DNA from: Leucoraja ocellata
Taxonomy: Eukaryota
Assembly: GCA_036785375.1 (NCBI GenBank)
Contig: JAWMAR010000107.1
Coordinates: forward strand, 2,728,001 to 2,792,000
Reading direction: 5' to 3'
DNA length: 64,000 nt
Part shown: positions 6,773 through 63,022 of the stretch, piece after piece
Layout: each line of letters starts with the position of its first letter
Numbering within the stretch: position 1 is the first letter of the stretch
Notes under the pieces: model-generated
What the model was told of the DNA's origin: nothing
Databases searched by the model: none
Seen by the model: only the letters and a program-made list of their open reading frames with translations
Position numbers and translations under genes: made by a program

Positions 6773-7640
6773 AATAACTCCTCTCCAATTCCACCACTCT
6801 CTTACACGAGGGGGGGTTTACAGTGGCCAGTTAACCAGTCATCATGTTTTTAGGGTCTGGGAGGAAACCGGAGCAGCTGGAGGAATCCCAAATGTCGCAG
6901 GGAGAACGTGCAAACTCCATTCAGACAGCGCCGGAGCTGTGGATCAAACCCGGGTGCTCGGTACGGTAAGGCAGCAACTCCTGTTGCTCCACCATGACAC
7001 CAGCTGATTAACAACAGCTGATGGACCCGTAGTCTAAATAAGTAGAAATGGTTCCTGAGAGCAGAGGAATGGACTGAAAGGACAACATCGATTGCATCCG
7101 AGCAGGGGTCAGGAATATTTCACCTCTAAAGTAGCTTGGTGTTATTTCCTCTTCACTCCAACTCAGGAAATGTATGATAACAGAGAGGGAAGCGGATGGG
7201 TTTAATGTTGCACTTGGATCATGTTGTTATTAGAAGTTGAAAGACAAAATAATGGAGTTGTTGAGAAGGGTGAAGGGGTTGCAAGGATTGGATGGGAAGG
7301 GATTAGCATGAGAGTTGGTTGCCAGAAGATATAGAGATTTTTGTTAGTGGAGAATGTGGATAGAGATGGCTTTGGAGGGGATACAGAGGAATTATATCAG
7401 AATGATCCCCAGGTTGAGGGACCTGTTGAGTTGAGTTGAAGATTTCAGAAGCTGCCGTTGTTCTTCTTGGATCTGACCAAGGCTCCCCCTTGGGGCTGTG
7501 AGGACATGTGGGAGATACCAAAAATCATGAAGACTATAGATGACAAAATCATTCCCATTAGTGGAAGGATTAAAAATCGGCGTGTAGAATGTTGGTGATA
7601 AAACCAGAAAAAAAGCATCACAAAACAGGTGAAGCAACTA

Positions 7641-7737
7641 GGTTACACAAAAAAGCTGGAGAAACTCAGCGGGTGCAGCAGCATCTATGGAGCGAAGGAA
7701 ATAGGCAACGTTTCGGGCCGAAACCCTTCTTCAGACT
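7641..7737 (-). mobile_element. 97-bp Penelope-terminus mini-insertion with hammerhead-like motif
   Basis: 13-bp TSD GGTGAAGCAACTA (7628-7640, 7738-7750). Minus strand starts AGT-CTGAAGA-A-GGGT-TTCG-GCCC-GAAACGTT. Confidence 0.85.
7704..7737 (-). ncRNA. Putative minimal type I hammerhead ribozyme motif
   Basis: CUGAAGA core, extra A, helix II GGGU/GCCC with UUCG loop, GAAA, palindromic AACGUU helix III, GUU triplet. Helix I is only ~2 bp. Confidence 0.55.
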
Positions 7738-9202
7738 GGTGAAGCAACTAATCTCTTTCCTCTGTGATCCTCAATTTCTCCTTCTCAGCATAAGCATTTT
7801 CTCCCTCCACGGTAAATTTTCCATTGGGAAAGGCGAAATTGAAAAGATATTTGAAATAGATTTGAAAGCTTCATTTGAATGGAAACTGAATAAATCGATT
7901 AAAGTTAAATAATTCCAGAACTGAGGGGAAAGGGCATCAGTGTCCTTGCGCAATGGTTCCCCCGCATTTCAATATTCCATCTGCTGAATTCTCCACAGTT
8001 TTGCTTATTAATATGTACGAAAATAATCGTGCAACCCCTTCCGTACAGTGCTCTTGCATTGTAAGCTGATGCATTCAGCCAGTTAGATTAGTTTAGTTTA
8101 AGATTAGATTAGATTAGGTTCCTTTATTGTCATTCAGACCTTTCGGTCTGAACGAAATTTTATTTCCCTGCAGTCATACATATAATAAAAAATGACAAAA
8201 ACACACAATCAACACAAATTTAACACCCACCATAGTGAGTTCACCAAACACTCCTCACTGTGGTGGAAGGCAAAATCTTAAAGTCTCTGTCTCTTCCCTC
8301 TTTGTTCTCCCTCTGCGCCGAGGCGATCCAGGCTCCAGATGTTGTGACCCCACCGGGTGATGGTAAATCCCGCGGCTCAACTGTGCTCCGCGAACGGGCC
8401 GGTTCAAACTCCGCGGGTGGTCGCTGCCGCCGCCGCAGCTCCGAGGTCGAGTCGGGTTAATTTAGTTTAGTTTAGTTTAGTTTAGTTTAGTTTTGAGATA
8501 CAGCAAGAAAATAGGGCCTTCAGTCCATTGAGTCCACTTGGTTGATGTCGACGAGTTGGGCTGAGGGACCTATTTTTGTGTTATATGACTCTATATCTGC
8601 ACTACATTGTCTTTTACATTAAATGCTCTCCATCACAAGTGCCCTAAATATTGACAAAATAACAGGAGTTTCCTGTTGAGGACTAAATGTTAGAATTAAA
8701 TTGGTGATGTCATATTTTCGTATGAATTGAAAGGAGACCATTTAGCCCAGTGTGTCTGTTCCACCGCTCAGAGTGTTTTCACAAACCCTCTCCTCCATTT
8801 TCATTGTAACCTATTCTCCTTCACATGCACAACAATTTCCCCCAGATTTATTAACCACCAAAGCAATTTAGAGCGACCTTCCAACCCGCCGGCTTTGGGA
8901 TGTGGGAGGAAACCAGAGCACCTGAGGGAAATCCACAGGAAGAACGTGCAACCTCCACACAAACAGCAGCAGGCTTCAGGGTGGAACTTGGTTTTGCAGA
9001 GATGGGTGGCAGCAGCTCTATCAGATGCATGTGTTTTGTGAGTTTTCCATTGATCTGTGTATAAATGTTTCTCTTTAATCTGCGGTAGTTCAACAAACTA
9101 CAGCTGATGATGGAAATGTGTGCAGGTGTCCATGTTCCTGTTTGTTCTTCAAATAATTCCTGATTCTTTTTTATTCCTTTTGAAAGAGAAGGATAACGGA
9201 GA

Positions 9203-9330
9203 CTGAAGAAGGGCCTTGACCCGAAATGTTACCTATCCATGTTCTCCAGAGGTGCTGCCTGACCTGCTGATTTCCTCCAGCATTTTGTGTCATTTTGTGT
9301 ATCGACCAGCATTTGTAGTTCTTTGTTTCT
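9203..9330 (+). mobile_element. Penelope terminal module
   Basis: CTGAAGAAGGGCCTTGACCCGAAATGTTACC...TCTCCAGAGGTGCTGCCTGACC. Confidence 0.7.
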
Positions 9331-10789
9331 GTGGAAGAAAGATGAGACTTTGTGGCCCTGTCATGTAAATGAGGGTTGAGTATCAGGCAGTGTAGACCTC
9401 TCCTGACTAAGTCCATGTTGCACTCCAGAAATCTGACAGTGTGATCCCAGATGATATCTCAGTACAGGACCAGGGGAAGGATCGCTGTTGTATTTCAGAC
9501 AAGGCAGCAGAATCCTGCCTCTAACAGTTCCTTAGGTACTTTTGGAAAAAGAACTGGGTCGGTGGGAGTGGGGCTGTCCTGATCAATTTTCATCCTTTAA
9601 CCAACATTCCCTGCAGCAAAATTGATTATTCGGGTCTTTTTTTCATTCAATTGTACTCCCGGAGCCAGTATTTATCGTCTTTGCCAAGCTGTAGATAATC
9701 CAATCCTTCAACGGGGTGAAGATCATCACTCACACACAGACTGTCCATATGTCATGAACACCTGACCTATGGACACCCCCACATACATACCAGTTCCCAC
9801 AACAATGTTAAATTCAAAAATCCGACAATTATACAAATGTTCGATCCTACAAGTGCCAGATCTAGTCTCCTTTCTCTCTCTCCCCACTTTTAGTAATTGT
9901 TCATTCTTTCCCGGTTTTGTGTACTTCTGATGCCATTCCTTACAATTACAATGCCATGGATGTATGGTCACCATATCCAGGTGTTTCGGTGCACTTTCCA
10001 ACGAATGGACTAAATGGACGTGGACATCTGTAAGATATTTGTTTGTTACCCAGCATAAGCATAACACTAATATACAGGAGCCGGAGAAGGCTTATATTCA
10101 TGCTGTGTGCCAGTCGATGCTGCCAGAGGAAGTGAATCAAACAGGTTGTAGATCAGCGTCTAGAGTGGTGGTGGTTGGATCTGAAGATTGTTGTGAGTGG
10201 CTTGGCCGTCCATTTCAGTTGTTAAATTAGGTGGAATTTATGCATTCACATTTCCAGTATTTTAGTCAAAGTCTCTGACAGACAGTCCAGTGCGATGACC
10301 CCTTGTCATCTGTACAGAAACATTAAAAAACAAACCTGCAGATGCTGAAGATCTGAAATAAAATCAGGAAACGCTCAACAAATTAGGCAGCATCTGTCGG
10401 AAGAGAAACAAAGCTAACATTTCAGCTTGGAGATCTTTCATCAGAATGAGGAAAGAGAGATAAGCATGGTCAAGATGGCAGAGGGGATGGATAGGACAAA
10501 GGGAAAATTTGCGATACCGTGAGGGCTGGTTAAACAACTTGGCTACCTGTTGCCTGTGGAAGTTTACTGCCTGCTATTTGGCTCCTGTGTTTCCTTCCTT
10601 ACCATGGTAACCAGGGTTCAGCTCTGCTTCACCAGCAGTGAGGCAGCCTTGAACTCTGCAGCTAAACCCCTGGTCATTCATTGTTTATTGTGAATAGAAC
10701 AGGCCCAACGATAACATGCAGTTTGCAATTGCAACTGCGAACAAGGGCATGGTGGCAGGTAGTATCTCATGTCCTGCAATATTGATCCA

Positions 10790-10990
10790 TGGGTTCAAAT
10801 CCCATTGTGGCAGCTGGAAAGTTTAAGTTCAACCTGGTAAATACATTTAGAATTGAAAAGCTGCCACTGCTAATGGTGGCCATGAACCCACCAGATTGTT
10901 ATTAAAAAGCCTGTCTCTTTCACTCAGACCCATCAGTAATGGAAATTTACCACCTTTACCCAAAGTAGCTACAATTAACCTGAGACTCCT
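10790..10990 (+). mobile_element. Ancient DeuSINE-like (SacSINE1/AmnSINE-type) relic
   Basis: GGGTTCAAATCCCATTGTGGCAGCTGG ... TAATGGTGGCCATGAA ... GGAAATTTACCACCTTTACC resembles the Deu-domain SINE consensus as recalled, not searched. Confidence 0.5.
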
Positions 10991-17533: not shown

Positions 17534-17569
17534 GAAAGATGGTAGAAAAATCAGAACACGTGTCTACCA

Positions 17570-17820
17570 CAGACACAAAATGCTGGAGCAACCCGGCGGG
17601 TCAGGCAGCATCTCTGGAGAAAGGGAATAGGTGGCGTTTCAGGCCGAGACCCTTCATCAGTATCGGATGAAGTAAAAGGACTGAAGCCTGAAGTCATGAG
17701 TCTGATGAGGGGGCTCAACCCAAAACCTTTTCTCCTGAGATGCTGCCTGACCTGCTGAGTTACTCTAACATTTTGTGTCTATCTTCGGTGTTAACCAGTA
17801 TCAGCTGTTCCTTCCTACAT
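17570..17820. mobile_element. Inverted pair of Penelope terminal modules
   Basis: Minus copy with CTGATGAAGGGTCTCGGCCTGAAACG and plus copy with CTGATGAGGGGGCTCAACCC, separated by ~40 bp. Confidence 0.75.
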
Positions 17821-18838
17821 ATTTTGTCTACTACATGCCAGTCTTGAATATCCCCTAGCAACTCATGGCAGAGTGACATTGACATAGAATGGGCTACACA
17901 TCAGAGACATGAGCACAACTGTGTAATATCAAGTAAATGCTGTTGTTCATGTGAAATGTTACTTATAATCCCTCGTCTGTCCTCTCATGTGCCAACTAAG
18001 GATTCTATGGTAGCATGCCATAGAATGGAGCAGCTTTCCTAATATTTATCACTACACCAACTGCACTAAAATGATTATCTGGCCAATTACATGTTGCTAA
18101 TCTGTGTGCTCTATGCAGACAGATTGGCTTCATATTTCACCATATAATGGTATCTATACTTCAGGATGTTCAAGGCTGCAGCATCTTTCTGGATGTCTGG
18201 ATGTTCAGGATGTTGGGTCATATGTGGTATGAAAACAAGTCCAATTTTTTGTCTAACACTGAGAACCATGCATCGACTTAATTCAAGTAGCCTCGGGAGA
18301 ACGGTTGCAACTATAATCCCAGGATCAAGGAATCATAAAATGCTTCTAGCGCAGAAGGTGTCTATTCGGCCTGTACTTGAGCAGCTCACTAATTTCAAAC
18401 CCAGCCCTCTTTCTGTGGCCTTGCAATTTTGTGGATTTATCCAAGTCCCTCTGGAAAGCCACAATGCAACCTGGCCCCATCACTTCATGCACTATTCATG
18501 TGCTTGTTACTTCCTTTCCCCTCAACCTTATACCCATGCCCCCAGTGCTCACACATACACTATTGCGAGCTGTCTTCCTTCATCCACTCTGTGCACGCCC
18601 TTCATCATGTTATATCCTGCCGTCAGACCTCTGCTCGGTGTTCTCTTCTCTGAGGAACCCAGTCTAGCCTCCCAAATAATCCATCCCACTGTAGTCCCTT
18701 TGCCCAGGATTCTTTACTGGACCTTCTCTAATGCCTTTATATCCCTTCCATAATGGGGAGATCAGAACGGAACTCAATGCTCATGTTAAACTCAGACCAG
18801 AGTTTCATGAGGGTTCGACCTAACTTCCCTGCTTTTAT

Positions 18839-18967
18839 GTGTAGGAAGGGACTTCAGATGCTGGTTTAAACCGGGCGGACACAAAAAGCTGGAGTAACTC
18901 AGCGGGTCAGACAGGATCTCTGGAGAAAATGAATAGGTGACGTTTCGGGTCAAGACCATTCTTCAGA
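18839..18967 (-). mobile_element. Penelope-terminus mini-insertion with hammerhead-like motif (GUC subfamily)
   Basis: CTGCTTTTAT repeated at 18829-18838 and 18968-18977. Minus strand reads AGTCTGAAGAATGGTCTTGACCCGAAACGTCACC. Confidence 0.8.
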
Positions 18968-20639
18968 CTGCTTTTATACTGTATGCCACTAGTGATAAAT
19001 CTCAGTATTAACCACTGTCCAAACCTCCCCTGCCACATGCGCTGGGGTGCAGTCCCAATTCTCCAACCTACCTCAACGCAGACATTGGATTGTTCTCTGG
19101 TAGTGTTACGCTACAATTCTGAGAATTATTCTGCACTTTGCTATGTTTCTCTCTGTTCTCTCTATTGTGCGTGTTTAGATTAATTGTGCTCATATATAGT
19201 GTTATCTGGTGTGATTATACAGTACGTAAACAAAAGCTTTTCACTGGAGCTCGGTACACAATGATAAACCTGGACCTAAACTTAAACCCACCCATCAGCC
19301 CACAGAAATGTTCAGTCTTGGCAGGCGGCTTCAACACAGGGATAAAAGCCAAAACTATTTTATCTTCATTAATATTCCTGACGTCAAATTGGTCTAGTGT
19401 GCATCAGAGGAAATCCTGCACATTCACCTGCTAGTTAAAACAGCATTCAAAAACAACAACTCTAGCCATTTTGGAGGCAAATCCTCCAACGCTTACAATT
19501 CACTGGTTCAATGTCCTGGGATCTATTGTAAAATCCATGGCTACAAGGGCAGCTCAGGGGCTGGGGAATGTGCGGTGAGTGCCTCATGTTCTGACATCCC
19601 CGGATATTTCCACCCTCCACCAGGCACAAGTCCGGAGTGTAATGGAATACTGTTTGGAGTTTGTTTGTTTTTTGCACAAAGTCCGCGAGCATTGCCACTT
19701 TTCATTTCATTGCACATCTCGTATGTGCATGTGACGAATAAACTTGACTTGACTACTCTCCGCTTGCCTGGGTGTGTGCCGCAACACCAGCTCACAACAA
19801 GCTTGACACCATTCAAACCAAAGCTCATTCGGCACCCCACCAACCACCCTAAACATTCATTTCCTCCACTGCCAGTGCACGGTGGTGCAGTCTGCCCCGA
19901 CTACAAAACACATTGCACCCTCACTGCATTCACATTGCAAACCCATCCACGCTGCTCCAACAGCAACTCCCAAACCTCACCCCTTTACCACCAAGAAGCA
20001 CAGGGGCAGCAAGTGCAGGGAACTCCGCCACAGGTATGTTCACCTCCAAGGCACACTCTGACTTGGAAATTCCCAGCCCCTGAGCTGCCCTGTAGCCATG
20101 GAGGCCAGTCCTTCATTGCCACTGGGTCTGAATCTAGGATGTCCCTCCCCTACATCTCTGGGGAAGCACCTCCACCAGAAGGACTTTTCAGTTCAGTTTC
20201 AGTTTAGTTTATTGTCACGTGTACCAAGGTACAGTGAAAAGCTTTTGTTGCTTGCTAACCAGTCAGCAGAAAGACAATACATGATTACATTCGAGCCATT
20301 TACAGTGTATAGAGGGAATAACGTTTAGTGCAGGGTAAAGCCAGGAAGGTCCAATCAAGGATAGTCCGAAGGTCACCAAAGAGGTAGATAGCAGTTCAGG
20401 ACTGCTCTCTGGTTGTGGTGGGATGATTCAGTTGCCTGATAACAGCTACAGTTCCAGAAGGTGCTTCACAAGGGTCTCGACCCAAAATGTCACCCATTCC
20501 TTCTCTCCAGAGATGTTGTCTGTCTCGCCGAATTAATCCAGCATTTTGTGTCTTCACCCCTACTTTCTCCGAGGCAGTTGGGGATGGATAATAAATGCTT
20601 GCCTTGGCACATCCTGAAAAACATAAATAAATGGAAAAT

Positions 20640-21759: not shown

Positions 21760-22765
21760 GAGCAGCAGAGTGGTGCAGCAGTAGAGTTTCTGCCTTACAG
21801 CGCCAGGGACCTAGATTCGATCCAGATTACGGGTGCTGTCCATGACGAGCGAGCCTCTACTGTCTCCCTGTGACCACGTGAGTTTTCTTTTTTTTTTAAA
21901 TATTTTTATTAGAAGCAAACACATATTATAAACATTTCATGTATATCAGTCGTACATTATTAATATTATCAATTGTGGATTGATTCTGCTTCTAGTTTAT
22001 TTTTTTAAAGATAGGAAGTAAGAGAGAAAGAGGAAAAAACCCCACAAATGTCAAAATAAAAAAAAGAATGGAATGATTTACTAATAATACGTCATTGGAG
22101 ATAGTTTTGTGGATTATAAAGTATAACTTTTCATCTAATCCTGAGTTCAAGCTTCAGGTTCCCGTGCTGAACCGATCTACCCCTTTAAATAGTCAATGAA
22201 TGGAGACCATATTCTAACAAAATGTTCTCGTTTGTCCATTAACACAAGTCTGATTCTTTCCAGGTGTAGGGTCTCTGACATTTCCATAATCCACATTTTG
22301 ATTGTGGGGGTTATAGGGCCTTTCCAAAATTTTAGTATTAATATTTTCCCAGTTATTATACTGTAGTCAAGAAAGTTTCTTTGGCTTGTTGTGAGTGTTA
22401 GACCTTGTTCTGATATGCCAAGTATTATTAGTTTTGAATTGGGATCCAATTTAATATTGATAATTTCAGAAATTATTCTAAAGATATAAATCCAGACATT
22501 TTTGATTTTTATACAGTTTACAAAAGTATGTGTTAGGTTAGCCTCTAGATGCTGACATTTATCACATTTATGACTGGGTGAGTTTTCTCCGGTTGCTCCA
22601 GCTTCCCCCCACACTACAAAGATGTGCAGGTTTGTAGGTTAATTGGCTTCTGTAAATTGTCCCTCATGTGTGGTATAGAACTAGTATATGGATGATCATT
22701 GGTCTGCGTGGACTCGGTGGGCTGAAGTCTCTGTCTCCACACCGTATCTCTATCTCGCTCTAAAT
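21760..22765 (+). mobile_element. SINE (HE1-like) split by the L1 insertion
   Basis: Head 21760-21888 and remainder 22578-22765 join at the L1 TSD. Confidence 0.82.
21889..22577 (-). mobile_element. 5'-truncated L1-clade LINE (ORF2 C-terminus, 3' UTR, polyA)
   Basis: CDKC..H..C zinc knuckle and ILKFWK..W..LHLERIR..F..IWSPF (22177-22570). AATAAA and polyA on the minus strand. 11-bp TSD GTGAGTTTTCT at 21878-21888 and 22578-22588. Inserted in a SINE. Confidence 0.88.
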
Positions 22766-25625: not shown

Positions 25626-26590
25626 TTATATTACAGAACTTAAATTTGTTTCTGCAAATATTCCAGGTTCAATGACTGGATTGTTATAAAGTCGTTGGAA
25701 AGTTTCCTCCGTTGACCATCCTGCTGTCTTGAGGATTTGGTCCATAGGAACGTCCAACTTCATAGCTGCCGATGTAGATGCAGCCCTGGTGGAGTGAGAT
25801 TTTAAAATGCTAGTGTCTACTCCAGCCTTTATTAGGACCTGTTTTAGCCATCTAGAGATGGTCTGGACTGTCACTGTTTTGAGTGACTGTTTGTAGCTGA
25901 TTAAAGTGACATTTCTTCCCTCTGATGATCTTAGTATACTCCATATATTCAGAGTGTGTTACAATACAGAGACGGCCATCTGTCGGGTAGGCCCTGAATA
26001 CTGTTTTTAGGCCTGCTGACCCCTGTCTGTTCTGTTTGACTATTTCATTGATGTGAAAAGTTAAATTTCCAGATGAAATAATCATGTTGTCCAACCTTTG
26101 TTTCTGTAGTGACTGGACCCTTTGTGCCGTGACCAAGGCCATCAGCATGACTGTTTTCTGTCAGTTTCTGTAGGGACAGAGCTGTAGCTGGAGACCAGTT
26201 TCTTAACATGGTCAGTACAATGCTCACATCCCATATTTGGGAGTACCTGGTTCTTGGGGGATTAATATTAAAATGCCCCTCATGAGTTTGGTTACCAGGG
26301 TGTGTCCCAACAGAATGCTGCTCTGTTCCTTGCCACAGGTATGTTGACAGAGCACTTCTGGCACAGTTGATGGCACTATGACTGAGCCTCTCATCGTAAT
26401 GGAGGCTTGCCAGGAATTCCAGAACAGACGGGATGTTCATAGATCTGTGGGTGATGTTTATTGTTGTGACAGTACTTCCCATTTCTTGATGACACCAAGT
26501 ACTGATTTTTTGGTGGACTGTCTGTGACCCGCTGAAATAATTTCACTGTTCGGTCCGTCAGTCCCAGGTGTAGTAGAGGTGCTTTCAACT
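25626..26590 (-). pseudogene. Frameshifted tyrosine recombinase of the decayed DIRS
   Basis: ORF pieces 26045-26482, 25852-26148 and 25626-25874 align consecutively to the intact YR (43/63 aa identical over the HSTR..Y block, counted by eye). Confidence 0.9.
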
Positions 26591-26932
26591 CTATAAATTA
26601 ATAGGTTTATATAATTATGACATGGGTAACTCCCCTTGTTGCGGGAAGAACCAGTAAATTAGGTCTATGATGGATGGTGATGCATGGTTCTAAAACCATG
26701 TCGATATCACCGGGTCCCATGGTTGAGTAGGCCAATCGGGTACTATCAAAATACCAGACGTGGAGTCTACTGTTTATTCCTAAATACCCGACTGATGAGG
26801 CAGAAGGAGGGAATGCATAAATAATCCCCCAATGCAGCGAAAATGCATCTGTAGCCACTGCCCCAGGTTCTGGTTTCCAAGAACCTAATTCGATAACTGG
26901 TGAGAGCATGGATGTGAATAGGTCGTGATCTG

Positions 26933-27168
26933 GTGTTCACCCCTGCAGCCATTAGATTTTATAATTCGGACCGCTAGGCTGTAGGGGGATGCATTCCTGC
27001 AATTTTTAATTTTTAATTGTTAATTATTGGTCTTTTTAAGTATTTATTGCTCTCAGGTAGTGTCCACAGTGTATTCTATGCATTTTCTATCTACGTTCGT
27101 TTTGAATCTGTGGGTTTGTTGGTTGGGGGCTTCTGGACATCTGAATTTCCCTGAGGGGATCAATAAAG

Positions 27169-27225
<57 letters not shown>
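26933..27225 (+). mobile_element. LINE 3' end (Rex/L2-like) with (ATT)n tail, inserted in the decayed DIRS
   Basis: Interrupts the DIRS RH/MT junction. Ends GAATTTCCCTGAGGGGATCAATAAAGTA followed by (TTA)n at 27172-27225. Confidence 0.65.
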
Positions 27226-27227
<2 letters not shown>

Positions 27228-29193
27228 GTGCTGTAATTCCAGCAATACATTTTTTTTTCTTTTTTTTTCTCCAACAGTGTTTTCATAGACTTAGCGTGAC
27301 CTGTAGTCTGCCATTAAATTCAGTTTACCTGGTAATTTGGTGGCTGATATCCAAATATCTTTCTGGATACATTATTGCCAAATTGTGTTGGCCAGATAGT
27401 CACATGATGTCGATATGTTTCCACCCATATGGTTGACATATGCTACCACGGTGGCGTAGTCAATTAATAGTCTAACATACTGGTGATATAACCCAGAACA
27501 ATATGACTTAAAGCCATGGAATGCACTCAACTTTCCCAGGTATTTATGCCCAGCGTTTGTAATGATGCCTCCTGTGCATTCCATCTCCCCCACAGCTGGA
27601 GATGGAATTGGTAGCATCCCATCCAAGTGCCCATGAGTATGTAGTTCCATAGACGGGTAGCTGTTAATGTTTGGATTGGAACAATGCCTAATGTTATGTT
27701 TCCACCATTTTAGTACCATGGTGGCCTCTGTTGGTAGCATCTTTGGTCTGTCAGAATGACCCCCATAATTTTTGAGTGCACGCATGTTTGCGCTCAGTAA
27801 TTTGATAATGTAAAGGTCCGATTTATGTGGCTGGAACACAGCCATTATAATGCCAATCATTCTACTACCAGTCTGATGGATGGTTTAGTTTACTGCAAGC
27901 CTCCATTAAGGCTGTAACCTTTTCTTACGGCAAAGTCACTGACATGTGAGCTGAGTTAAGGGTGAAACCGCAGATGATCCATTGTGTTAAATACATCTGT
28001 GGTCACCTCTAATGGGTACTGTATAGGAAGCATTTTTTAATACGATGCTTGCCATGTAGTAACCTAGGATCAATACCTTTGCAGTAACAAAGGTTCCCAT
28101 CTAGTAATTAATATAAAGTACGAAAGTATTCAAATTATTCAAATCTATGATGATGTGGCAACCACCATCTAATTTATGATAAAGATTTTTGGACACGAAT
28201 TCCTGTGGTTCGTGTTGGATGTCCTCCATTAGTCCTTTTTTATTTGGGCACTGTAGTTCATTATGCGCTTTTGATTATTTCTTGCCTGTAAGCATGAACA
28301 TTCAGTTCGGTACATGCTGAACTGGAGGATTATGTTTTGAATAATTCTATGGTAGAGTAGGAGAAATCAAGAATAAGAGGAATTCATTAAAGGTGAGAGA
28401 GGAAAAATGTGATAGGAACCTGAGGAGCAACTTTTTCACCCGGATGGTGGTGAATGCAACAAACTGCAGAGGAGGTAGTTGAGGCAGATACGTTAACAAC
28501 ATTTAAAATACATTTGGACAGGTAAATGGATAGGAAAGATTTTGAGGGATATGGGCCAAACAGGCAGGCAGGACTAGTGTAGATGGGGCATTCCTGGTCA
28601 GCATGGCCAAGATGGGCTGAAGGGACATGTTTCCATGCTTTAAGACTATGAATCAAAAGATGAATCAAAACATTTGCACTGTGTAGAGTGTGCTCTGCTT
28701 CCCAGCCTGTGGGGTATTATCTGGTGAGGCTGCACAGGACAGGCAGGTCTGGGCACCGGGAAGGGCAGTGAACTGGGGGAGAGATCTGGGGGAGGCTGGG
28801 AAAGAGATCCCAACATTCAGACGGGGAATAGGAATCATGCACTTACACCCCGAACATGGACACTTCAACCCACTGAGTCCACGCCAACAATCCAACACCC
28901 ACTTTTACACTGATCTGACAGTCAGCCATTTTATTCTTCCTTCTTTCACATCCTCAGCCTCCCAGATTCCACCACTCACCAACACACTAGCAACAATTTA
29001 CAGCAGCCAGTTAACCTACACACCCGCACATCTTTGAGATACGGAGGGAAACCAAAGACCCAGGGGAAACCCACTCGCATGTATGTGTGTGACTGTGTAC
29101 TGTGTGTGTAGGCAAATGTGTTTGTGTGCATGCATGCATGTGTCTGTATCTGCATAAATGCAGGTGATTGTGTGTCTGTGTTTCATTATGGGC

Positions 29194-35227: not shown

Positions 35228-35645
35228 TGATTTCCCTAACATCAAGTAACCCTTGCATTCCCTCCCTCTCCGTCCCTCCACCACCCTAGTTGTACTAGTT
35301 TCACTGTCGTCCTCTTGAGTTTCATTGTTATCACCTAATGGACCGTTTCCTTGATCATCGTTACTTTTTTGTATATCTTTCATTCACTTGTTCAAAATCT
35401 CTCTATATCACCATCTATATCTCTCGTTTCCCTTTCCCCTGACTCCCAGCCTGCAGAAAGGTCTTGACCCAAAACACCACTTATCCCTATTCTTCAGAGA
35501 TGCTGCCTGACCCGCTGAGTTACTCCAGATTTTTGTGTCTATCTTTGGTTTAAACCGGCATCTGCAGTTCCTTCCTACACATTAGCTCTGCTTCTCTTCC
35601 CACAGATGCTGCCTGACCTGCTGGGTATTGGCAGCATTTTCTGTG
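35228..35645 (+). mobile_element. Penelope-like 3' UTR and terminal module
   Basis: Pyrimidine-rich UTR homologous to 63745-64000, followed by a decayed hammerhead-like motif and GATGCTGCCTGACCCGCTGAGTTACTCC. Confidence 0.7.
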
Positions 35646-42346: not shown

Positions 42347-42373
42347 ATTTTACTTCGGAGTCACGTGAGTGAC

Positions 42374-42409
42374 TACGTGAAGAACCCACCCAGCGCGCAG
42401 GCGCGGCAT
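42374..42409 (+). repeat. DIRS left inverted terminal repeat
   Basis: TACGTGAAGAACCCACCCAGCGCGCAGGCGCGGCAT is the exact reverse complement of 47032-47067. Confidence 0.93.
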
Positions 42410-42522
42410 TACGTCAGCAGTGCAACAGCGGCAGCAGCTGGAGCCAGGCTCTCCAGCTGCAGCATAAAGACGAGACCTCAGGTAAGTGCCTTTTTTGTTT
42501 CAGAGTCGCGCTAGAGAGAATA

Positions 42523-43734
42523 ATGGCCTCTCGCAAGCGACCAGCCAGGAGGACTGCCTGCCCTACTCCACCCGAGGACGGGTCCATAGCGGGACGGCAG
42601 CCTCTCGCAGCGGAGGAGCTTTTTCAACGCTCCCGCTCACCCGACACCGAGCCGCCCCCAGTGCTGCAAATCTCAACGCCCCGCACAGGGAGGAAGGCGA
42701 CACAGAAAACCGACCGGCCGGTGTCCTCCGATGATTCGGAGGAACGGGAACACTCTCCCCCACCGAAAAGGGGAGACGCTCGGATAAGCTGCATGAGGCA
42801 GCTCCTCGAACGTATGATTAATGAGGAGATGCGGCATCTCCCAGGAGGACGGGCTTTGGCCTCCTCCTCTCCACACCCTTCTGTACCCTCTATATTCGAG
42901 GGCAGTAAGGGAGGCCAGGACTGGGCTGGCCTATCCCAAGGGCAGGCGGAGGATATCGTCAGCATGCCGGGCGTGCCGGAAGAAGAGCTACTGGGTGTAG
43001 TGGGCCGATATGCGGCACCACCAACAACTGGGATGGTGTTGCCACCCAGAATGGCGGCAACTATAAACAGGCTGTCCAACAACCCGCTGCAGGACAAGGC
43101 TGTCCAGCAGGCCCTTGACAACTACATCGCGCCCGAAAATTGCGAGGCGCTGAGGGTCAAGACGGTAAATGGGCAGATCTGGAACCAGCTGGGGCAGCAC
43201 ATAAGGGCTCAGGAGGTCAAAATGCAGCGAGTCCTGAAGCTACACTCAGCAGCCGTCACCGCCTTTGCTCGGTCAGTTGGGGAGGAAGACCTGACCATAC
43301 CCCAGCAAGATGCCCTCGCACTGATGTGCGGCACCACGTACGAGCTAAACAACCTACGGCGGGACAACATCAGGCCTGCCCTCAACCCAACATATGCGGG
43401 CCTCTGTAAAGCTCCAGCGCCCGAACGACAGGCGCTGCTATTTGGTGCGGATCTGGCCAAAAGGCTCAAGGAGTTGGAAGAGGCGGCAAAACCAGTAGGC
43501 CTCATGAGGGCAGGGCCAGGACCGAGCAGGGCGAAGACACCCAGTTGGCCGCACGCCTCGGCAGCCACCAGCAGATACCGAGCTGGTGAAAGCCTGGTGA
43601 CCGCCTCCCACTACCCCCAGTGCTCTTTTTTAGAGCGGGGCCCAGGGCGGAGCCGTGGGAAGATGCGCCGCCCCACCGCAGCACCAACACGGACAACCTT
43701 GGGCCAGACCCACCGGAAACGACCCCACAAGTGA
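42523..43734 (+). CDS. DIRS ORF1, Gag-like protein (403 aa)
   Basis: ATG-initiated uninterrupted ORF, first in the element. Low-complexity N-terminus, central PENCEALRVKTVNGQIW segment resembling DIRS Gag-like proteins, basic C-terminus. Confidence 0.85.
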   Translation: MASRKRPARRTACPTPPEDGSIAGRQPLAAEELFQRSRSPDTEPPPVLQISTPRTGRKATQKTDRPVSSDDSEEREHSPPPKRGDARISCMRQLLERMINEEMRHLPGGRALASSSPHPSVPSIFEGSKGGQDWAGLSQGQAEDIVSMPGVPEEELLGVVGRYAAPPTTGMVLPPRMAATINRLSNNPLQDKAVQQALDNYIAPENCEALRVKTVNGQIWNQLGQHIRAQEVKMQRVLKLHSAAVTAFARSVGEEDLTIPQQDALALMCGTTYELNNLRRDNIRPALNPTYAGLCKAPAPERQALLFGADLAKRLKELEEAAKPVGLMRAGPGPSRAKTPSWPHASAATSRYRAGESLVTASHYPQCSFLERGPGRSRGKMRRPTAAPTRTTLGQTHRKRPHK

Positions 43735-43736
43735 AC

Positions 43737-45671
43737 ATGGAGGTAGGTGGGTCTGGTTCCTGTCAACATACACAGACAAAGGGTGTAGTATTAACAGGGG
43801 GACGTTTGAGGTTCTTCAAGCATGTTTGGTGCTCCCTTACTAACAATCAGTTTATACTCAACAGTATTAGTGGATACAAGATTGAATTCAAACCAGGCGT
43901 AGAACCGCCAGTTCAGCACATGCCCCAAAGGGTGTTCCTTCCCTCGGCAGTTGAGAAGGTAGAAGGACAAGCTGAACTTGATCGGCTCGTGGCTAAAGGC
44001 ATCATAGAAATGACCACACACGAGCCGCAAGAATTTGTATCAAATATTTTTCTCAAAACTAAAAAAGATGGTGGATGTCGCATTATTATTGATCTGACAT
44101 CACTTAATCAGTCTGTTGAGTATCAACATTTCAAAATGGAGACATTTGTCACTGCCAGACAACTGATCTCCAAGGGATACTACATGGCAAGCATAGATAT
44201 CAAAGATGCTTACTATTTGGTACCCATTCATAAAGATTACTTTAAATATCTGAAATTTATCTGGAGGGGCCAGCTATGGCAGTACCGAGCTTTGCCCAAT
44301 GGTTTAACGACAGCTCCCAGACTATTTACGAAAATTCTTAAAGTGGCCATGAAGAAATTGAGAGAATTAAAACATTTAGTAGTGGCCTATCTGGACGATG
44401 TTCTCATATTAGGAAGAACACGGGATCAAGCTGTCGCAGGAGTGTTAGCCACTAAACGACTCCTTGAAACTTTGGGTTTTATCCTCCACCCAGATAAATC
44501 AATATTGGAGCCTACTACTAACATGGATTACTTAGGCTTCACTATTGACACGATTCACATGACTGTCACTCTGCCCAGAAACAAAACAGTTTCACTCATT
44601 GAAGCTTGTAGCCATTTAATTGCCACACCGCAACCTAGAATACGGCATGTAGCCAGAGTTATTGGCTCTATAGTAGCAGCATTTCCGGCTGCCCAACATG
44701 GGCCCTTGCATTATCAAAATCTCCAAAGAGCAAGGACTCATGCATTACGCCTTCATAGGGGGCATTATGATCGCAAAATGGATTTACCCGCTGAAGCCAA
44801 ATTAGAACTTCAGTGGTGGGTTGACAATATTTGGCACAGTCACAGTCCTATCACCGTAACCAATCCTAACATAACCATTGCAACGGATGCCAGTGCTTTA
44901 GGCTGGGGAGCTACTAACTCCAAAGACAGCACAGGTGGCAGATGGACTAATTCAGAGGCATCGCTACTACACTCACTGGGCATTAACTTTTTGGAAATGC
45001 TCGCCGCCTTTTATGGGCTAAAAGCATATGCATCTGGTATGCGACACGTGCATGTTAGAATTATGATCGACAACACTACGGCAGTATCTTATATCCAGCA
45101 CATGGGTGGCATTAAATCAGTATCATGCGACAAATTAACTGCTATAATCTGGCAATGGTGTGTCGAGAGACATATTTGGCTATCAGCTGCCTATTTACCA
45201 GGCAAGCTAAATTTAGTGGCGGACACCAGGTCACGAAAATTCAACGACAACATCGAATGGATGTTGGACCCAAAATCATTTGCTAAAATTATCAAGCAAT
45301 ATGGTACGCCAGATATAGATTTGTTTGCGTCTAGGTTAAATCACCAACTACCCATGTATGTGGCTTGGGAACCAGACCCAGAGGCAGCAGCGGTAGATGC
45401 CTTCACGCTGGACTGGGGAAATTTCTTTTTCTATGCTTTCCCTCCCTTCTGCCTCATCAGTCGGGTACTCCAGAAAATTCAGGCAGACTCAGCCTCTGGC
45501 ATTCTGGTCGTGCCCGACTGGCCTACCCAACCATGGTTCCCAATGTTCCACGACATGGTGGTAGAGACACCAATGGTCCTTCAACACCACCCCCAATTAT
45601 TGACTCACCCGGTAACTGGCATTAGCCATCCATGCCACCAAAAATTGAAACTCCTGGTTTCCAGATTTTGA
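43737..45671 (+). CDS. DIRS ORF2: reverse transcriptase / RNase H / DAM-like methyltransferase domain
   Basis: Frame open from 43620; first ATG at 43737, 2 nt after the ORF1 stop. RT motifs IDIKDAY, LPNGLTTAPRLFTK, YLDD, YLGF. RNase H motifs TDAS..GWGA, NFLEMLA, DNTTA, ADTRSR. C-terminal DLFAS...DAF..DW...YAFPPF...VPDWPTQPW. Confidence 0.95.
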   Translation: MEVGGSGSCQHTQTKGVVLTGGRLRFFKHVWCSLTNNQFILNSISGYKIEFKPGVEPPVQHMPQRVFLPSAVEKVEGQAELDRLVAKGIIEMTTHEPQEFVSNIFLKTKKDGGCRIIIDLTSLNQSVEYQHFKMETFVTARQLISKGYYMASIDIKDAYYLVPIHKDYFKYLKFIWRGQLWQYRALPNGLTTAPRLFTKILKVAMKKLRELKHLVVAYLDDVLILGRTRDQAVAGVLATKRLLETLGFILHPDKSILEPTTNMDYLGFTIDTIHMTVTLPRNKTVSLIEACSHLIATPQPRIRHVARVIGSIVAAFPAAQHGPLHYQNLQRARTHALRLHRGHYDRKMDLPAEAKLELQWWVDNIWHSHSPITVTNPNITIATDASALGWGATNSKDSTGGRWTNSEASLLHSLGINFLEMLAAFYGLKAYASGMRHVHVRIMIDNTTAVSYIQHMGGIKSVSCDKLTAIIWQWCVERHIWLSAAYLPGKLNLVADTRSRKFNDNIEWMLDPKSFAKIIKQYGTPDIDLFASRLNHQLPMYVAWEPDPEAAAVDAFTLDWGNFFFYAFPPFCLISRVLQKIQADSASGILVVPDWPTQPWFPMFHDMVVETPMVLQHHPQLLTHPVTGISHPCHQKLKLLVSRF

Positions 45672-46642
45672 ACAGGCCTTACCGGGGATTGGGGTTATCA
45701 GACAGAACAATCACCACCATGTCGGCATCCCTGCGAGTTTCCACCAAGAAACAGTACCTGACCTTCATCAGGAAATGGGAACAGTACTGTCTGGACGCAG
45801 GGACATCCTACACGACGACTTCGATCTCGGATGTGCTGGAGTTCCTGGCCCACCTGCACCATGATCTCAAGATGAGCTACAGTGCCATCAACACGGCTCG
45901 GAGCGCACTGTCCGCATATCTAATGCCGATAGAACAGCATAGTGTGGGATCCCACCCTCTAGTCATCAGACTCCTTAAGGGGATCTTTAATACCAAACCC
46001 CCTACACCTAGATACACTCACATGTGGGATGTGAGTGTGGTTCTCACACACCTTCGAGGTTGGCCTCCGGTGGGATCCCTGAGCCTGGAACAGGCCACTT
46101 ACAAAACCCTCATGCTCATGGCGCTTGTCTCAGCTCAAAGGGTCCAGTCGCTCCATCAGCTTAATCTAAACTACATGGTGACCACCCCAGATACCATTAC
46201 TTTCACTATGCCGGGGTTGGTAAAACAAAGTAGACCAGGTACATCAAACTCCCCGATGATCTTCCGGGCTTACCCTCCAGAACCTAGGCTGTGTGTGGTG
46301 ACCCACCTTCAACATTATCTAGACACAACCCAAACGCTAAGAGGGAGAGAGAAAGCCTTATGGGTTAGCCACAGGAAGCCTTTTGGACGGGTAACCAGCC
46401 AAACATTATCCAGATGGTTGAAACAGGTCCTCAGCATGGCAGGGATTAACACTAATGTTTTTAAATCCCATTCAACCAGGGCAGCGTCCACCTCAGCGGC
46501 GGATAGGATGCAGGTTCCCCTCGACCACATCCTCAGGGCAGCGGGATGGTCAAGGGAATCGACATTCCAACGATTTTACAACAAACCGCTGATGGAACAG
46601 GACGTCTTTGCGGATACTGTTTTACAAACCGCAAAGTTATGA
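45632..46642 (+). CDS. DIRS ORF3: tyrosine recombinase (phage-integrase family)
   Basis: 336-aa ORF overlapping ORF2 by 40 nt. N-terminal SAM-like part (SYSAINTARSALS). Catalytic R (SAQR), HxxR (HSTR), W (AAGW) and Y (FQRFY). Alternative start at ATG 45719 (ACCACCATG). Confidence 0.95.
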   Translation: MPPKIETPGFQILNRPYRGLGLSDRTITTMSASLRVSTKKQYLTFIRKWEQYCLDAGTSYTTTSISDVLEFLAHLHHDLKMSYSAINTARSALSAYLMPIEQHSVGSHPLVIRLLKGIFNTKPPTPRYTHMWDVSVVLTHLRGWPPVGSLSLEQATYKTLMLMALVSAQRVQSLHQLNLNYMVTTPDTITFTMPGLVKQSRPGTSNSPMIFRAYPPEPRLCVVTHLQHYLDTTQTLRGREKALWVSHRKPFGRVTSQTLSRWLKQVLSMAGINTNVFKSHSTRAASTSAADRMQVPLDHILRAAGWSRESTFQRFYNKPLMEQDVFADTVLQTAKL

Positions 46643-51897: not shown

Positions 51898-52080
51898 TAA
51901 GAAGGAACTGCAAATGCTGGAAAATCGAAGGTAGACAAAAGTGCTGGAGAAACTCAGCGGGTGCAGCAGCATCTATGGAGCGAAGGAAATAGGCAACGTT
52001 TCGACCCGAAACGTTGCCTATTTCCTTCGCTCCATAGATGCTGCTGCACCCGTTGAGTTTCTCCAGCACTTTTGTCTACC
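51898..52080. mobile_element. Fold-back Penelope-terminus insertion (74-bp hairpin)
   Basis: Arms 51930-52003 and 52007-52080 with one G:T mismatch and a 3-nt loop. 13-bp TSD ACTGGAAAGTTTC (51885-51897, 52081-52093). Confidence 0.9.
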
Positions 52081-53964
52081 ACTGGAAAGTTTCCTCAGGC
52101 AACACCTAGGCTACACAGGAGAGGGCAAAGCATGACCTACTCAGAGAATTAGCCAGGGCAAGTGACTGAAGTGTCAGTGGGCAAATATTTTGGAACCAAC
52201 GGCCACAGTTCTATTAGCTTTAATATGGATATAGATATTTTATAGATAAGGACAGAATTGTTAAAGTTCTAAATTAGGGCAAGGCCAACAATGGTATTAG
52301 GCAGGAACTTGTAATGAATGGTCCCGACCCAAAACGTCACCTATCTATTTTATCGAGAGATGCTGCCTGACCCATTGAGTTACTCCAACAATTTGTGCCT
52401 ATCTTTGGTATAAACCAGCATCTGCAGTTCATTTTTATTGTAACTTGTAAAAGTTGATTGGAGTAGGTTGTTTACGGGCAAAGTGACATCTGGAAATTGG
52501 AATCTTTTTAAAAGGGGTCACAGTGAAAGTTCAAGGTACGTGTGCGTTCCAGTTAGAGTGAAGGGCAGAGCAACTAGGAGTAACGGACCCTGGATGATGA
52601 GAGAAATTGAGGCTCTGGTCAGGAAAAAGATAGAGGCATAGGCTAGTGTGATCAAGTATATCCCTGGACGGGATCTGGGGATTGAGGAGTTTACTTAAGA
52701 AGGAAATCAGGAGGGCAAAATGGGATCGTGAGCTAGCTCTGGCAAATAAGGTTGTGGAGAATCCAATCATATTTTATAAGTATATTCTTGGAAAATGGAT
52801 AACTAGAGAGAGAATAGGCTCCTGTAATACACTGACAACATTTAAGAAGTGTCCAGATGAGTGCTTGAATCACTTTGCATGGAAGACCACTGAAGCCAAG
52901 CACTGGACGATGGTATTAATACAGAAGGGGGCCCATCGCTCAGTGTGGACATGGCGGGCTGAATGGCTGTTCCACATGATGTATGACTCCATGGCACTGT
53001 CCCATTGCAGCACAATGGCACGACTTGTTCCCATGATTGAGGGAGTGCTGCTCGATGGGTTTGCCCCTTTAAGAAGGCTGTAGAAGTTTAATAGCATCAA
53101 CCGAGATCCAACCCAAGGAATGTTTCACTCCTCGGCCAGAGTGTGACCCGCCTTGGGATTGTGGCTGGGTCCTGGCTAAGTGAATCAGCGGCTGCCAAGG
53201 AGTTTTATGCTTGGATCGGGATTCTAGACAAGTGCACATAAAACGAGTTGAATGTTTGATTCCTGAGCTCCAGCTCTCTGAGTGGGGAAGGGTGATAAAA
53301 AGCACTGGTCTCTGCCCTGCTGCAAACTCCAGACCATCCTGCCAGCTTTAGGCAGCCACGCTCGCTCGGCAGTGAGAGGAGTTGCAAAGCAGCTTTGCAG
53401 CTGGCTCAGAGTTTATGACTCTGGTCTTCATTTGGAGTTGTTTTGATCAGAATTGGCCTGGCACACTGGGGTTCTGTGCAGAGGATTAAACTGGATGGAA
53501 AGTGCCTTTAGCTGGAGCCAGCTGTGTATACACTCTCCCACCACATTGAAACTACCGCAGACGTCCACAGGGCCAGCCAGCACAGAGGCTGCCTCGCACA
53601 TCTTTTATTTATCACCGGTTTGTGCGCTGAGCTTGAGGACAATTGGCAACCTATGCAAGCTGATCCCACTCTCTGCTGATATTGAAGGGAAATGCACAGA
53701 GATAATAATCTCTGTTTTATTTAACTCTAACCATACCTGATGCAAGGTGACAGGAAGTTTCAAGGAACATCAAAGGTGAGGCCTATTTTTAGAAATCCTG
53801 AGGGAGAGTCAGGAACTCAGAGGTCGTGTTATATATTACACAAGTCCACAGCAAGGTTGTCAGTGAGACCATAAAATAGATCCTCTTCCAAATACTTAAC
53901 AGACTTAGTTTTAACATTGCAAATTGATGATGGCCACTGGAGAGAGAACAGAGAGTGACTGAGA

Positions 53965-54175: not shown

Positions 54176-54319
54176 CACTGATGCTAGCTTCCCTTCTCTG
54201 AGAGGTATTAGTGAACCAACCCTCTAATCATTGATCATCACAAATGGCAAGGTTTTTTTTGGAGCTCCAGACGATTAATTGAATTTATTTACAGCAGTTG
54301 CTGATCAATTGGGTGGTGA

Positions 54320-61310: not shown

Positions 61311-61544
61311 GCCAGTAATCCTGGTGTAAGTCCAGTTGTGTTTAGATAACTATTGGTGGGATGTCATTGGGAATAAAGCCCCCTGGCCAGGGTTTTTGGA
61401 ATCGGTATTGGAAAAATCCCAATGTGGAGCGGAGAGATCTGATTAAACAACTGTCTAGGTCAATGAGGGTTTTGCACCATTTGACCCTACAAAAGCAGTG
61501 TTGAACATAGTCTCACAGATGGCCACCAGTTTGTTGTCAATATT

Positions 61545-61837
61545 ATGTTTAGTTTTAGTTTAGAGATTCAGCTTGGCAATTGGCCCTTAGGACCCACCGA
61601 GTCTGCATCGACCAGTGATCCACTTACATCAACACTATCCTACACAATCGGGACAATTTACAATTTTGCCTAAGCCAATTAACCTACAAACCTATACATG
61701 TTTGGAGCGTGGGAGGAAACCAGAGCACCTGAAGAAAACCCACACAGGTCATGGGGAGAACGTCCAAACTCCATACAGACAGCACCCGTAGTCAGGATCG
61801 AACCTAAGTCTCTGGTGCTGTAAGGCAGCAACTCTAT
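61545..61837 (-). mobile_element. SINE (HE1-like)
   Basis: Reverse-complement consensus. Confidence 0.82.
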
Positions 61838-61925
61838 CGACCTTCATCACACAATTATCCAAAGGAATGGTGGAGATGATATAATTACAACGTTTAAGAC
61901 ATTCAGACAGATACATGGTAGGAAA

Positions 61926-62113
61926 AGTAGGCATGATGAAGTCAGTCAGTTGTGCGTGGGTGCAGGAGGTGGCACCAAAGCAGTCATCGATGTAGCAGAG
62001 GTAGAGGTCGGGGATGAGTCTGAAGAAGGGTTTCGGCCCGAAACGTTGCCTATTTCCTTCGCTCCATAGATGCTGCTGCACCCTCTGAGTTTCTCCAGCA
62101 TTTTTGTGTACCT
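61926..62113 (+). mobile_element. Penelope mini-insertion: inverted RT (YIDD) fragment joined to a terminus
   Basis: 14-bp TSD TACATGGTAGGAAA (61912-61925, 62114-62127). 61935-62015 on the minus strand encodes IPDLYLCYIDDCFGATSCTHAQLTDFI. Inserted in a CR1 3' end. Confidence 0.85.
62017..62050 (+). ncRNA. Putative minimal type I hammerhead ribozyme motif
   Basis: AGT-CTGAAGA(62020-62026)-A-GGGT-TTCG-GCCC-GAAA-CG-TT, identical to the motif at 7704-7737. Confidence 0.55.
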
Positions 62114-63022
62114 TACATGGTAGGAAAGGTTGGTGAGATATGGTGCAAATCTGTTCATGCAGAAAGGCACCTTGATCAGCATTGACAAGTTGGGGTGAAG
62201 GGCCTGTTCTCATGCAATACAACAACGAATCTATGAACCTAAACTGCACCAGGACAGGTCCGCACTGCAGCATGGATGAGCCTGGCAACGCCTCTGGCAA
62301 GGTGCAGGAGACAAACTCGCCCGTACCTTACCATGCCCTGTTTTGCAGACTTGCCTATTTTGAAACGAGCTCCCACTGTAAAAGCTAAGGAGGTCAGTGA
62401 GTTCACTGAGTGTGCCTCATGCCTGGCAGCAGAGCCCGTTCCGTTCACACGCCACTCTCATGAACCCTGATGCCGCCACAATAACTGCATTCACTCCAGC
62501 CTTGGCAGTCCCTGAAGTGAGGAGGTAAAGAAACGTGTGTTTACTGATTGGCTCACATTTAATGATCTTGCTAATACTGGCACACTTCATCAGGAGAAGT
62601 AATGTTACAGTATCTGAGCTCTGCTGATGAGAGAGACCAGATGTACAATGTGCAGGAAGAGTTTAAACACTATAATTCAGAGTTAATTATGACCATCTGA
62701 CCACTGACGTCTCATATAACTATTAGATTAGAGGTAAACTTTTTCAATCAGAGACGTTTAATTAAGGACAACTGGCCTTTCAATGCAGATCCTCGTTGAT
62801 GGAACTTCCCACACTGAACCTCTACATGACCCAATATCCACAGTGTACACTTCCAATTGGCTGCTCTGAAGCTAATTAAAAACAAAGAAGCCTCAATAAC
62901 AATCAAAATTTACGTAAAATTGCAATTCTTCTTTACCCCGGAGACTATCCAAACTTCCCTGGTGATGAAAAGTCCTGTTATTAGATTGAACACGGATGGC
63001 AACTGGACTAGCCCACATACAG

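Follow-up and report, generated by a model that had tools for sequence, protein, structure and literature searches.

Short leader copies of a probable Neptune-type Penelope-like element share a one-nucleotide 5' hot spot in Leucoraja ocellata

Results

Module copies and insertions in the window

The window, i.e., the whole 64-kb stretch of DNA analyzed, harbored 22 clusters of copies of a short module (blast). A 33-nt stretch of this module had 29,991 exact matches genome-wide and its reversed control had 0, so its recurrence, as described in the initial annotation, was not due to chance. Three of the insertions listed there were indeed flanked by TSDs (13, 10 and 14 bp). The first (7641-7737, minus strand; TSDs at 7628-7640 and 7738-7750, plus strand) was a solo leader/pLTR stub of the young subfamily A, extending from index 0 to +96 and ending at the proximal 3' site. 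It matched the leader of L132, a tandem copy that bears an ORF, at 97/97 positions, and encompassed a minimal type I hammerhead predicted from sequence at 7705-7736 (minus strand; motif definition from PMC4209133). The second (18839-18967, minus strand; TSDs at 18829-18838 and 18968-18977, plus strand) was a solo stub of the older subfamily B that included the tail and ended at the distal 3' site; its start was ambiguous between -1 and +2, because the CAG of the element is also part of the right TSD (microhomology). In the third (61926-62113; TSDs at 61912-61925 and 62114-62127, plus strand), about 9 nt of filler and an inverted 82-bp piece of PLE RT coding sequence (61935-62016, minus strand), displaying the YIDD motif and 95% identical to the ORF-bearing locus L045, preceded a subfamily A leader stub (62017-62113, plus strand) joined to the RT piece at index 0. 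Of the three insertions proposed to start the module at the same point, the second is ambiguous and the third begins with filler and inverted RT sequence.

The other listed copies were also recovered. They comprised a head-to-head pair of B stubs at 3946-4119 (3946-4037 minus; 4038-4119 plus, with tail), a decayed B stub at 9200-9291 (plus strand, blast cluster), head-to-head decayed B stubs at 17572-17819 (17572-17660 minus; about 17698-17819 plus), a B stub starting within the ribozyme at 20470-20552 (plus), a decayed B stub with partial tail at 52316-52428 (plus) and a decayed B copy ended by the window edge at 63958-64000 (plus). The B copy at 35448-35580 (plus strand, with tail) retained the upstream pyrimidine-rich 3' UTR and showed no hot-spot stop. 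The window also contained a near-perfect hairpin at 51898-52080, made of two A stubs joined inside helix II, and a 5'-truncated Neptune-type remnant at 39858-41137, in which inverted leader pieces and an inverted RT piece came first, followed by the RT end and GIY-YIG endonuclease region (40058-41137, plus strand).

Mobilization of the module with TSDs was confirmed beyond the window, with TSDs of at least 8 bp in 20 of the 30 young solos that could be scored (3/33 could not), versus 0.8% of mismatched flank pairs.

Parent element

The repeats very probably represent the pLTR (terminal repeat) and 5' leader of an autonomous Neptune-type Penelope-like element (PLE) that is abundant in this genome. 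The parent element is still present at full length and the repeats are its end pieces, not a separate mini-element; the class of element is already known and no new class is involved. Locus L045 encoded an open RT and GIY-YIG frame (3428-7201; motifs DKG, YIDD and YIGET), followed by a 113-nt pyrimidine UTR and then by the module. The match of this ORF to RVT_1 (E=2.9e-6) was under Pfam's cut-off, its GIY-YIG domain had no Pfam match and was recognized by eye, and a protein atlas gave no result for the ORF N-terminus. The CX2-5CxxC linker between RT and EN, a trait of the Neptune clade, was present as CNRKRCNTC, and the clade placement is based on this motif. In tandem copies the module ran on through the tail to an ATG (L132:1497), and was located between the 3' UTR of one ORF and the ATG of the next. 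Partial-tandem pLTR, inverted copies and a 30-40 bp tail, by which EN+ PLEs are recognized, were all present. The initial annotation was right to assign the module to a Neptune-type PLE, as its minimal type I hammerhead region.

Leader/pLTR copies formed 586 clusters in 1.584 Mb, a sample consisting of the window and 152 evenly spaced 10-kb segments from large contigs and hence not strictly random. By extrapolation, stubs would number on the order of a million genome-wide. Another 40 regions were chosen for lacking the ATCAG extension, and therefore show what junctions look like but not how frequent each class is.

5' ends of the copies

The 632 copies found in 1.58 Mb started at -2 to +4 (149), inside the module (252), or at -3 or further upstream (231), the last class overlapping with chance overshoot so that no clean split could be made. 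A sharp peak was obtained at two positions, with 34 starts at index 0 and 40 at +1 (74/632) compared to 3.9 per nt across the interior of the module (P about 1e-45), while simulated uniform breakpoints put 14 and 16 starts there and displayed no such peak. The initial annotation was right that truncations are not uniform; the 252 and 231 starts elsewhere do not fit the fixed breakpoint that it proposed. The shared start is a hot spot rather than a boundary, and other 5' ends are mostly spread. An apparent peak at +23 (24 matches) came for about half from 66-bp tandem arrays, and +23 starts were excluded from the background for this reason.

Among young solos, 28/30 started at the G of GUCUGAAGA (index +1), in the outer pair of helix I. 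The modal first base was therefore this G, and not the A of AGT (index 0) given initially. Bases preceding the start G in young solos were near background (A10, G7, T7, C4). Exact genome-wide counts by start were 21,072 (+2), 19,431 (+1), 15,617 (0) and 11,005 (-3). A cap-derived extra G was rejected, as the base before the start G was itself a G in 38% of non-A cases (1,461/3,814) versus 37% in the background.

3' ends, junctions and RNA reads

Copies ended at two fixed 3' sites about 36 nt apart, delimiting the known PLE 'tail'. Coverage of subfamily A fell from 89 at +84 to 44 at +100, and from 41 at +124 to 0 at +140, and this two-step drop agrees with PMC11167929, where two RT start sites lie one on each side of the tail. 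Run-off-like junctions displayed slippage back into the module, or a jump either to +234 of the leader/ORF or into RT coding sequence; reads from a related organism likewise had loose ends at the same two positions. Among ORF-start-containing copies reaching +5, 2 of 11 distinct events stopped near the hot spot and 9 ran upstream, as judged by eye.

None of the sequencing runs listed as containing the sequence was recorded as RNA. Four RNA runs of the related organism, chosen by species label and made from fragmented libraries in which host-embedded copies predominated, gave no pile-up of read starts or ends, and the RNA 5' ends that the initial annotation suggested looking for were not seen. 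Among the joints listed, none was of the circle type at the cut; the libraries were oligo-dT and single-cell ones, which are not well suited to detecting such joints.

Predicted hammerhead ribozyme

The module was called as a minimal type I hammerhead region from its motif anatomy. At 7705-7736, the predicted ribozyme consisted of a 2-bp helix I, CUGAAGA, an extra A, a 4-bp helix II, GAAA and a palindromic CG, with a predicted cut after GUU, between 7707 and 7706. The hammerhead models of Rfam did not recover it: the scan of the window returned no hammerhead family and only miRNA-like matches on hairpins, all below gathering score.

The core (CUGAnGA, GAAA and UH), with helix II and a palindromic helix III, represented the commonest states in 233 copies, and was intact in only 50/370 copies. 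Helix II pairs were kept in 82-87% of copies, their common states showing one one-sided change (U-A/U-G) and no two-sided change. Non-CpG conservation was 0.94 in the core versus 0.88 downstream (0.93 in the better half of the downstream sequence); this core is rich in A, and conservation at its CpG positions drops to about 0.7. The lowest-energy predicted fold was a rival hairpin that would bury the hammerhead core, and leader fold stability was not above that of shuffles (z -0.27). No tandem arrays of whole hammerhead units were seen, the copies of the window being solos or head-to-head, and the arrays noticed were 66-bp units without the CUGAnGA half. Breakpoints showed no peak at the predicted cut (5 starts at +31 versus a background of 3.9 per nt).

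Discussion

Origin of the short insertions

The one-nucleotide hot spot likely records a step in the copying of the element. The short insertions probably derive from RT that started at either of two internal sites on uncut RNA and stopped early, the commonest stop being the first nucleotide of the predicted hammerhead. By analogy with the anole Poseidon element in vitro, the GIY-YIG domain would nick the target, and the nick would prime cDNA at about +97 or +135. The template would be uncleaved or re-ligated element RNA, because the cDNA extends beyond the cut site. Roughly one pass in three or four would then terminate at G+1, the most likely cause being that some of the template RNAs have their physical start there, a step to which we give roughly even chances as a whole. 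Such an RNA end could result from initiation at the initiator-like TCAGT, or from exonuclease trimming to the edge of a ribozyme-protein complex. Finally, microhomology and short templated insertions would link the cDNA end to the target, a second cDNA (giving head-to-head pairs) or a different part of the element RNA. Counting against the RNA-end step, no RNA end and no cap signature were seen, and in D. virilis Penelope the start site is found about 120 nt further upstream than the corresponding point (PMC2377424). In addition, with 2 of 11 ORF-start-containing copies stopping and 9 running upstream, only efficient strand transfer would allow every RNA to start at +1, and a per-pass roadblock would fit the 2/11 equally well.

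Such a roadblock is a possible, less favored explanation: the RNA would continue upstream, and RT or cDNA-end repair would halt on meeting the pyrimidine tract and YAG, for instance because splicing or poly-pyrimidine factors are bound there. The frequency of stopping was similar in 5' and 3' leader contexts (2/11 versus 9/25, both small numbers), the tract just upstream was 80% C in subfamily A, the upstream UTRs of all listed subfamilies were pyrimidine-rich and mostly ended in YAG, and the lack of a cap-G excess points the same way. The single-nucleotide sharpness at G+1 argues against it, as do ORF-internal breakpoints, which were not preceded by C-rich sequence (n=42; 0.36 versus 0.38 in the null, p=0.88); a C-rich roadblock as a general rule for the ORF was thus unsupported.

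A 'strong-stop' reading with a step resembling that of retroviruses, in which the RNA begins at the first nucleotide of the ribozyme and target-primed RT copies only about 97 or 135 nt, runs off and must transfer to the downstream leader to reach the ORF, appears rather unlikely. Were it true, stubs would be failed transfers, and successful transfers would explain the regeneration of the pLTR and of tandems.

Splicing would set the boundary if the UTR were an intron, extending from a GT at the stop codon to a CAG acceptor at helix I, with spliced or half-spliced RNA defining the edge. D. virilis Penelope offers a precedent for this position, and subfamilies A and B both have a GT at the stop codon followed by a pyrimidine tract and YAG. 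This explanation is nevertheless improbable, since the predicted spliced junction was found in 0 genomic copies and was absent among the 15/16 joints listed (UTR depth of about 1,200-1,600, one strand, two single-cell runs) as well as among those listed for the other read set, where 126 further joints were not displayed, and since solos retain the G that splicing would remove and display no constant upstream exon.

The initial annotation had proposed that the copies may be defined, retrozyme-like units. An independent family of 100-190 bp replicating from its own transcripts would account for the very high copy number, the TSDs and the preferred start; monomeric pLTR-related retrozyme copies have been described, and some solos could be read through by host transcription and then recopied. 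However, solos are identical to the ORF-bearing autonomous leader, and the three commonest young variants were common to stopped and extended copies (25/18, 7/8 and 6/2, respectively). In an unbiased young set, 16/25 copies extended into the 3' UTR or ORF, one of the three named insertions holds RT coding sequence, and 5' ends form a continuum. With no array of whole ribozymes seen, ends off the cut site and the core rarely intact, the view of an independent family is largely refuted, and we consider it quite improbable.

Self-cleavage of the ribozyme is refuted as the main source of the 5' end of the unit and very improbable as the process that sets it, although it may make a minor contribution: the expected U was absent before 15.8% of exact matches from +31 (53,302 versus 44,861) and 4/95 local copies (3 events) started exactly at the cut site, but 6/10 non-U local cases were a GUC subfamily variant with intact ribozyme, +31 starts scarcely exceeded background and the main hot spot lies 30 nt upstream. 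The apparent breakpoint peak at the cut site mostly reflected this GUU/GUC variant.

The preferred reading, i.e., early stops of RT on uncut RNA, bears on how PLEs regenerate their pseudo-LTRs and on the role of the hammerhead, questions raised in PMC2377424 and PMC8557442. The genome holds near-identical young junctions by the tens of thousands, from which the two RT start sites as well as a one-nucleotide stop site can be read, so that one precise question becomes testable, namely whether an RNA end exists at G+1. The hot spot is a testable clue to the copying mechanism of PLEs, hammerhead cleavage leaves almost no trace in DNA, and the genome supplies open ORFs for in vitro work.

Comparison with known systems

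No account of the 5' hot spot or of the cartilaginous-fish family was found in the literature listings searched, although Repbase/Dfam, subscription papers or supplements may hold one. Minimal hammerheads of metazoan PLEs were mostly single motifs genome-wide, attributed to truncated PLEs (Cervera and de la Pena 2014, PMC4209133). The module shares with them a type I core in the pLTR, an extra nucleotide after A9, G10.1-C11.1, a palindromic 15.2-16.2 and a short helix I, but its helix II is only 4-5 bp and its helix I only 2 bp long. Breakpoints of single motifs are not mapped in the consulted parts of that paper, and its supplements may list cartilaginous-fish motifs.

Unlike D. virilis Penelope (PMC2377424), the element displayed no sign of splicing, and its promoter placement is only proposed. 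With Neptune-clade EN+ PLEs (PMC8557442, PMC3846280) it has in common a single RT and C-terminal GIY-YIG ORF, a CX4CxxC linker, partial tandems, inverted head-to-head pLTRs, an optional 30-40 bp tail, TSDs, microhomology at the 5' junction and solo pLTRs. The extreme abundance of leader-only stubs and the one-nucleotide 5' hot spot set it apart, neither being found in the consulted passages of those papers or by the literature searches.

For the Anolis Poseidon element PAc (Frangieh et al. 2024, PMC11167929), uncut RNA was the dominant template and no reads began or ended at the cut site. Both features agree with our reading, as does the position of its two internal RT start sites at the edges of the tail; the start sites of PAc lie inside the ORF, whereas both are upstream of the ATG here, and the consulted parts of that paper describe no 5' stop site. 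Finally, non-LTR retrozymes (bioRxiv 10.64898/2026.07.22.740005) are likewise pLTR-derived, hammerhead-bearing, non-coding and dispersed as monomers. They are defined by tandem units with complete hammerheads, of which none were seen here, and, unlike them, the stubs described here track the autonomous element.

Abundance and identity of the repeat

The hammerhead-bearing module is a real, very abundant repeat of known kind, and it carries one precise, testable clue to mechanism. With the three natural copies as queries, 22 clusters were found within the window. Genome-wide, a 33-nt and a 40-nt piece of the module had 29,991 and 53,302 exact matches, respectively, and the reversed control of the 33-nt piece had none. 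A 1.584-Mb sample (the window and 152 evenly placed 10-kb pieces of large contigs, not a strict random draw) contained 586 clusters, extrapolating to about 1.3 million.

Three insertions (7641-7737, 18839-18967 and 61926-62113) had been described in the initial annotation as TSD-flanked units starting at the module. Their TSDs proved genuine on checking (13, 10 and 14 bp, respectively), and 20 of 30 young solos (leader-only copies) also had TSDs, of 9-14 bp. The third insertion opens with inverted RT coding sequence rather than with the module, and the CAG of the second belongs to the TSD, which leaves its start ambiguous.

Parent-element loci, retrieved using the module or the GIY-YIG remnant of the window as query, displayed a long open frame (RT motifs, CX4CxxC linker and GIY-YIG end) followed by a 113-nt pyrimidine UTR and the module. 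In tandem copies, the module was followed by a tail of about 36 nt and then, at index +167, by the start codon of the next ORF (positions with a + sign are counted from the A of TCAGTCTGAAG, taken as 0, which lies at L132:1330 in a locus collected for comparison and at window 7737, minus strand). As the module lies between the UTR and the next ATG, the 'mini-element' is the terminal repeat (pLTR) of a Neptune-type Penelope-like element (PLE), serving as both 3' end and 5' leader. The solo at 7641-7737 was identical to the parent leader (97/97), and young sequence variants were common to stopped and extended copies. Among the first 30 pattern loci, 25 copies reached +2, of which 16 continued into the UTR, 7 were solos and 2 were head-to-head.

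One PLE ORF had a proline-rich N-terminal extension of about 500 aa with short repeats and no Pfam match (L045:3509-5000). At L006 and L045, the 3' UTR of elements of the older subfamily B hosted insertions of the young subfamily A at a similar place. Over the ORF end and UTR at L132:901-1330, single-cell RNA-seq reads from a related organism (runs X21 and X22) were several-fold more numerous on one strand than on the other.

Ends of inserted copies

The 5' ends were spread continuously between sites far inside the ORF and the module interior, with a single hot spot. The shared 5' breakpoint initially proposed is a preferred start rather than a fixed boundary: 74 of 632 copies started at 0/+1, against 3.9 per nt within the module, and uniform breakpoint simulations gave no comparable peak. 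Genome-wide exact-match counts fell by 7.8% from +2 to +1 and by 19.6% from +1 to 0. Since G was present in 28 of 30 young solos and the base before it was near background, the most common first base is G+1, which sits in the outer pair of the 2-bp helix I. In subfamily B the hot spot occupied the same zone, with starts divided between 0 and +1. Junction features were microhomology, short inserts templated from nearby sequence, back-slippage into the module and jumps elsewhere in the element.

A possible second hot spot lay around the RT YIDD codons (L045:6098-6148; window 40014-40059 and 61935-62016), where 7 of 62 ORF fragment 5' ends fell within about 50 nt, often with inversions, in a small and partly selected sample.

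At the 3' side, coverage dropped at two points, around +97 and around +135, and of 88 subfamily A copies none extended beyond +140. The segment between these two end sites is the PLE tail, which PMC11167929 links to two internal RT start sites.

The predicted hammerhead

The motif matches the minimal type I hammerheads described from metazoan PLEs and is a predicted ribozyme that may be self-cleaving. Subfamily differences sat at tolerated positions, e.g., H17 (C/U) and loop II. Helix II covariation amounted to one one-sided change, the core showed no clear protection as inserted copies decayed (50 of 370 copies kept it intact), and the predicted lowest-energy fold was a rival hairpin burying the core. 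A third, older variant (CUGAUGA, different helix II) was seen at window 10420-10444 (minus strand).

No breakpoint peak was found at the predicted cut site (5 starts), from which we infer that reverse transcription used RNA that was uncut or had been re-joined; the genome-wide count drop there was mostly due to a GUC variant. Uncut or re-joined RNA likewise served as template in vitro for the Anolis Poseidon element PAc, according to PMC11167929.

Possible causes of the stop at G+1

A subpopulation of element RNAs may begin at G+1, a reading with about an even chance of being right, which is preferred because the stop is sharp and the junction jumps are run-off-like. A roadblock halting reverse transcription at the hot spot appears distinctly less probable: 9 of 11 ORF-start copies ran past the site, which is consistent with it, but ORF breakpoints were not predicted by C-richness. 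A capped transcription start at the hot spot, where TCAGT resembles an initiator, would be at odds with the lack of excess extra G at junctions and of any RNA read pile-up, the latter a weak test on reads of a related organism. Upstream UTRs of several subfamilies carried a branch-point-like CTGAC/CTGAT motif only 3-7 nt before YAG, too close for an ordinary acceptor. Splicing, with the hot spot as acceptor at helix I, agrees in position with the D. virilis acceptor, but neither a spliced genomic copy nor, among the read joints listed, a spliced one was found, and solos kept the G. Self-cleavage was rejected as the main cause, its cut falling at the wrong place.

Other elements in the window

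A DIRS-type retrotransposon (42373-46642, plus strand) held three open overlapping frames, of 453 aa, 693 aa (with RVT_1) and 338 aa (tyrosine recombinase), and a decayed relative lay at 26045-27884 (minus strand). Two further features were noted by eye: at 62830-63528, a tandem repeat whose two strands both carry open frames, and at 22177-22638, a frame similar to the C-terminal end of an L1/Tx1-type LINE.

Comparison with known elements

The literature describes hammerheads in PLEs, single motifs left by truncated PLEs, tails, pLTRs in inverted and solo form, and retrozymes derived from pLTRs. The one-nucleotide hot spot was described in no listing from our literature searches, which covered openly available papers. 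Head-to-tail 66-bp arrays (L021-L023, L059, L075 and L093) corresponded to +23..+88 of a subfamily B leader, without the CUGAnGA half of the ribozyme. The earlier proposal of independent, retrozyme-like units was not borne out, as no whole-ribozyme tandem was seen, ends lay off the cut sites and no separate lineage emerged. Non-LTR retrozymes are defined by tandem units with a complete hammerhead apiece. The stubs described here behave like PLE insertions cut short at the 5' end and are members of the PLE family.
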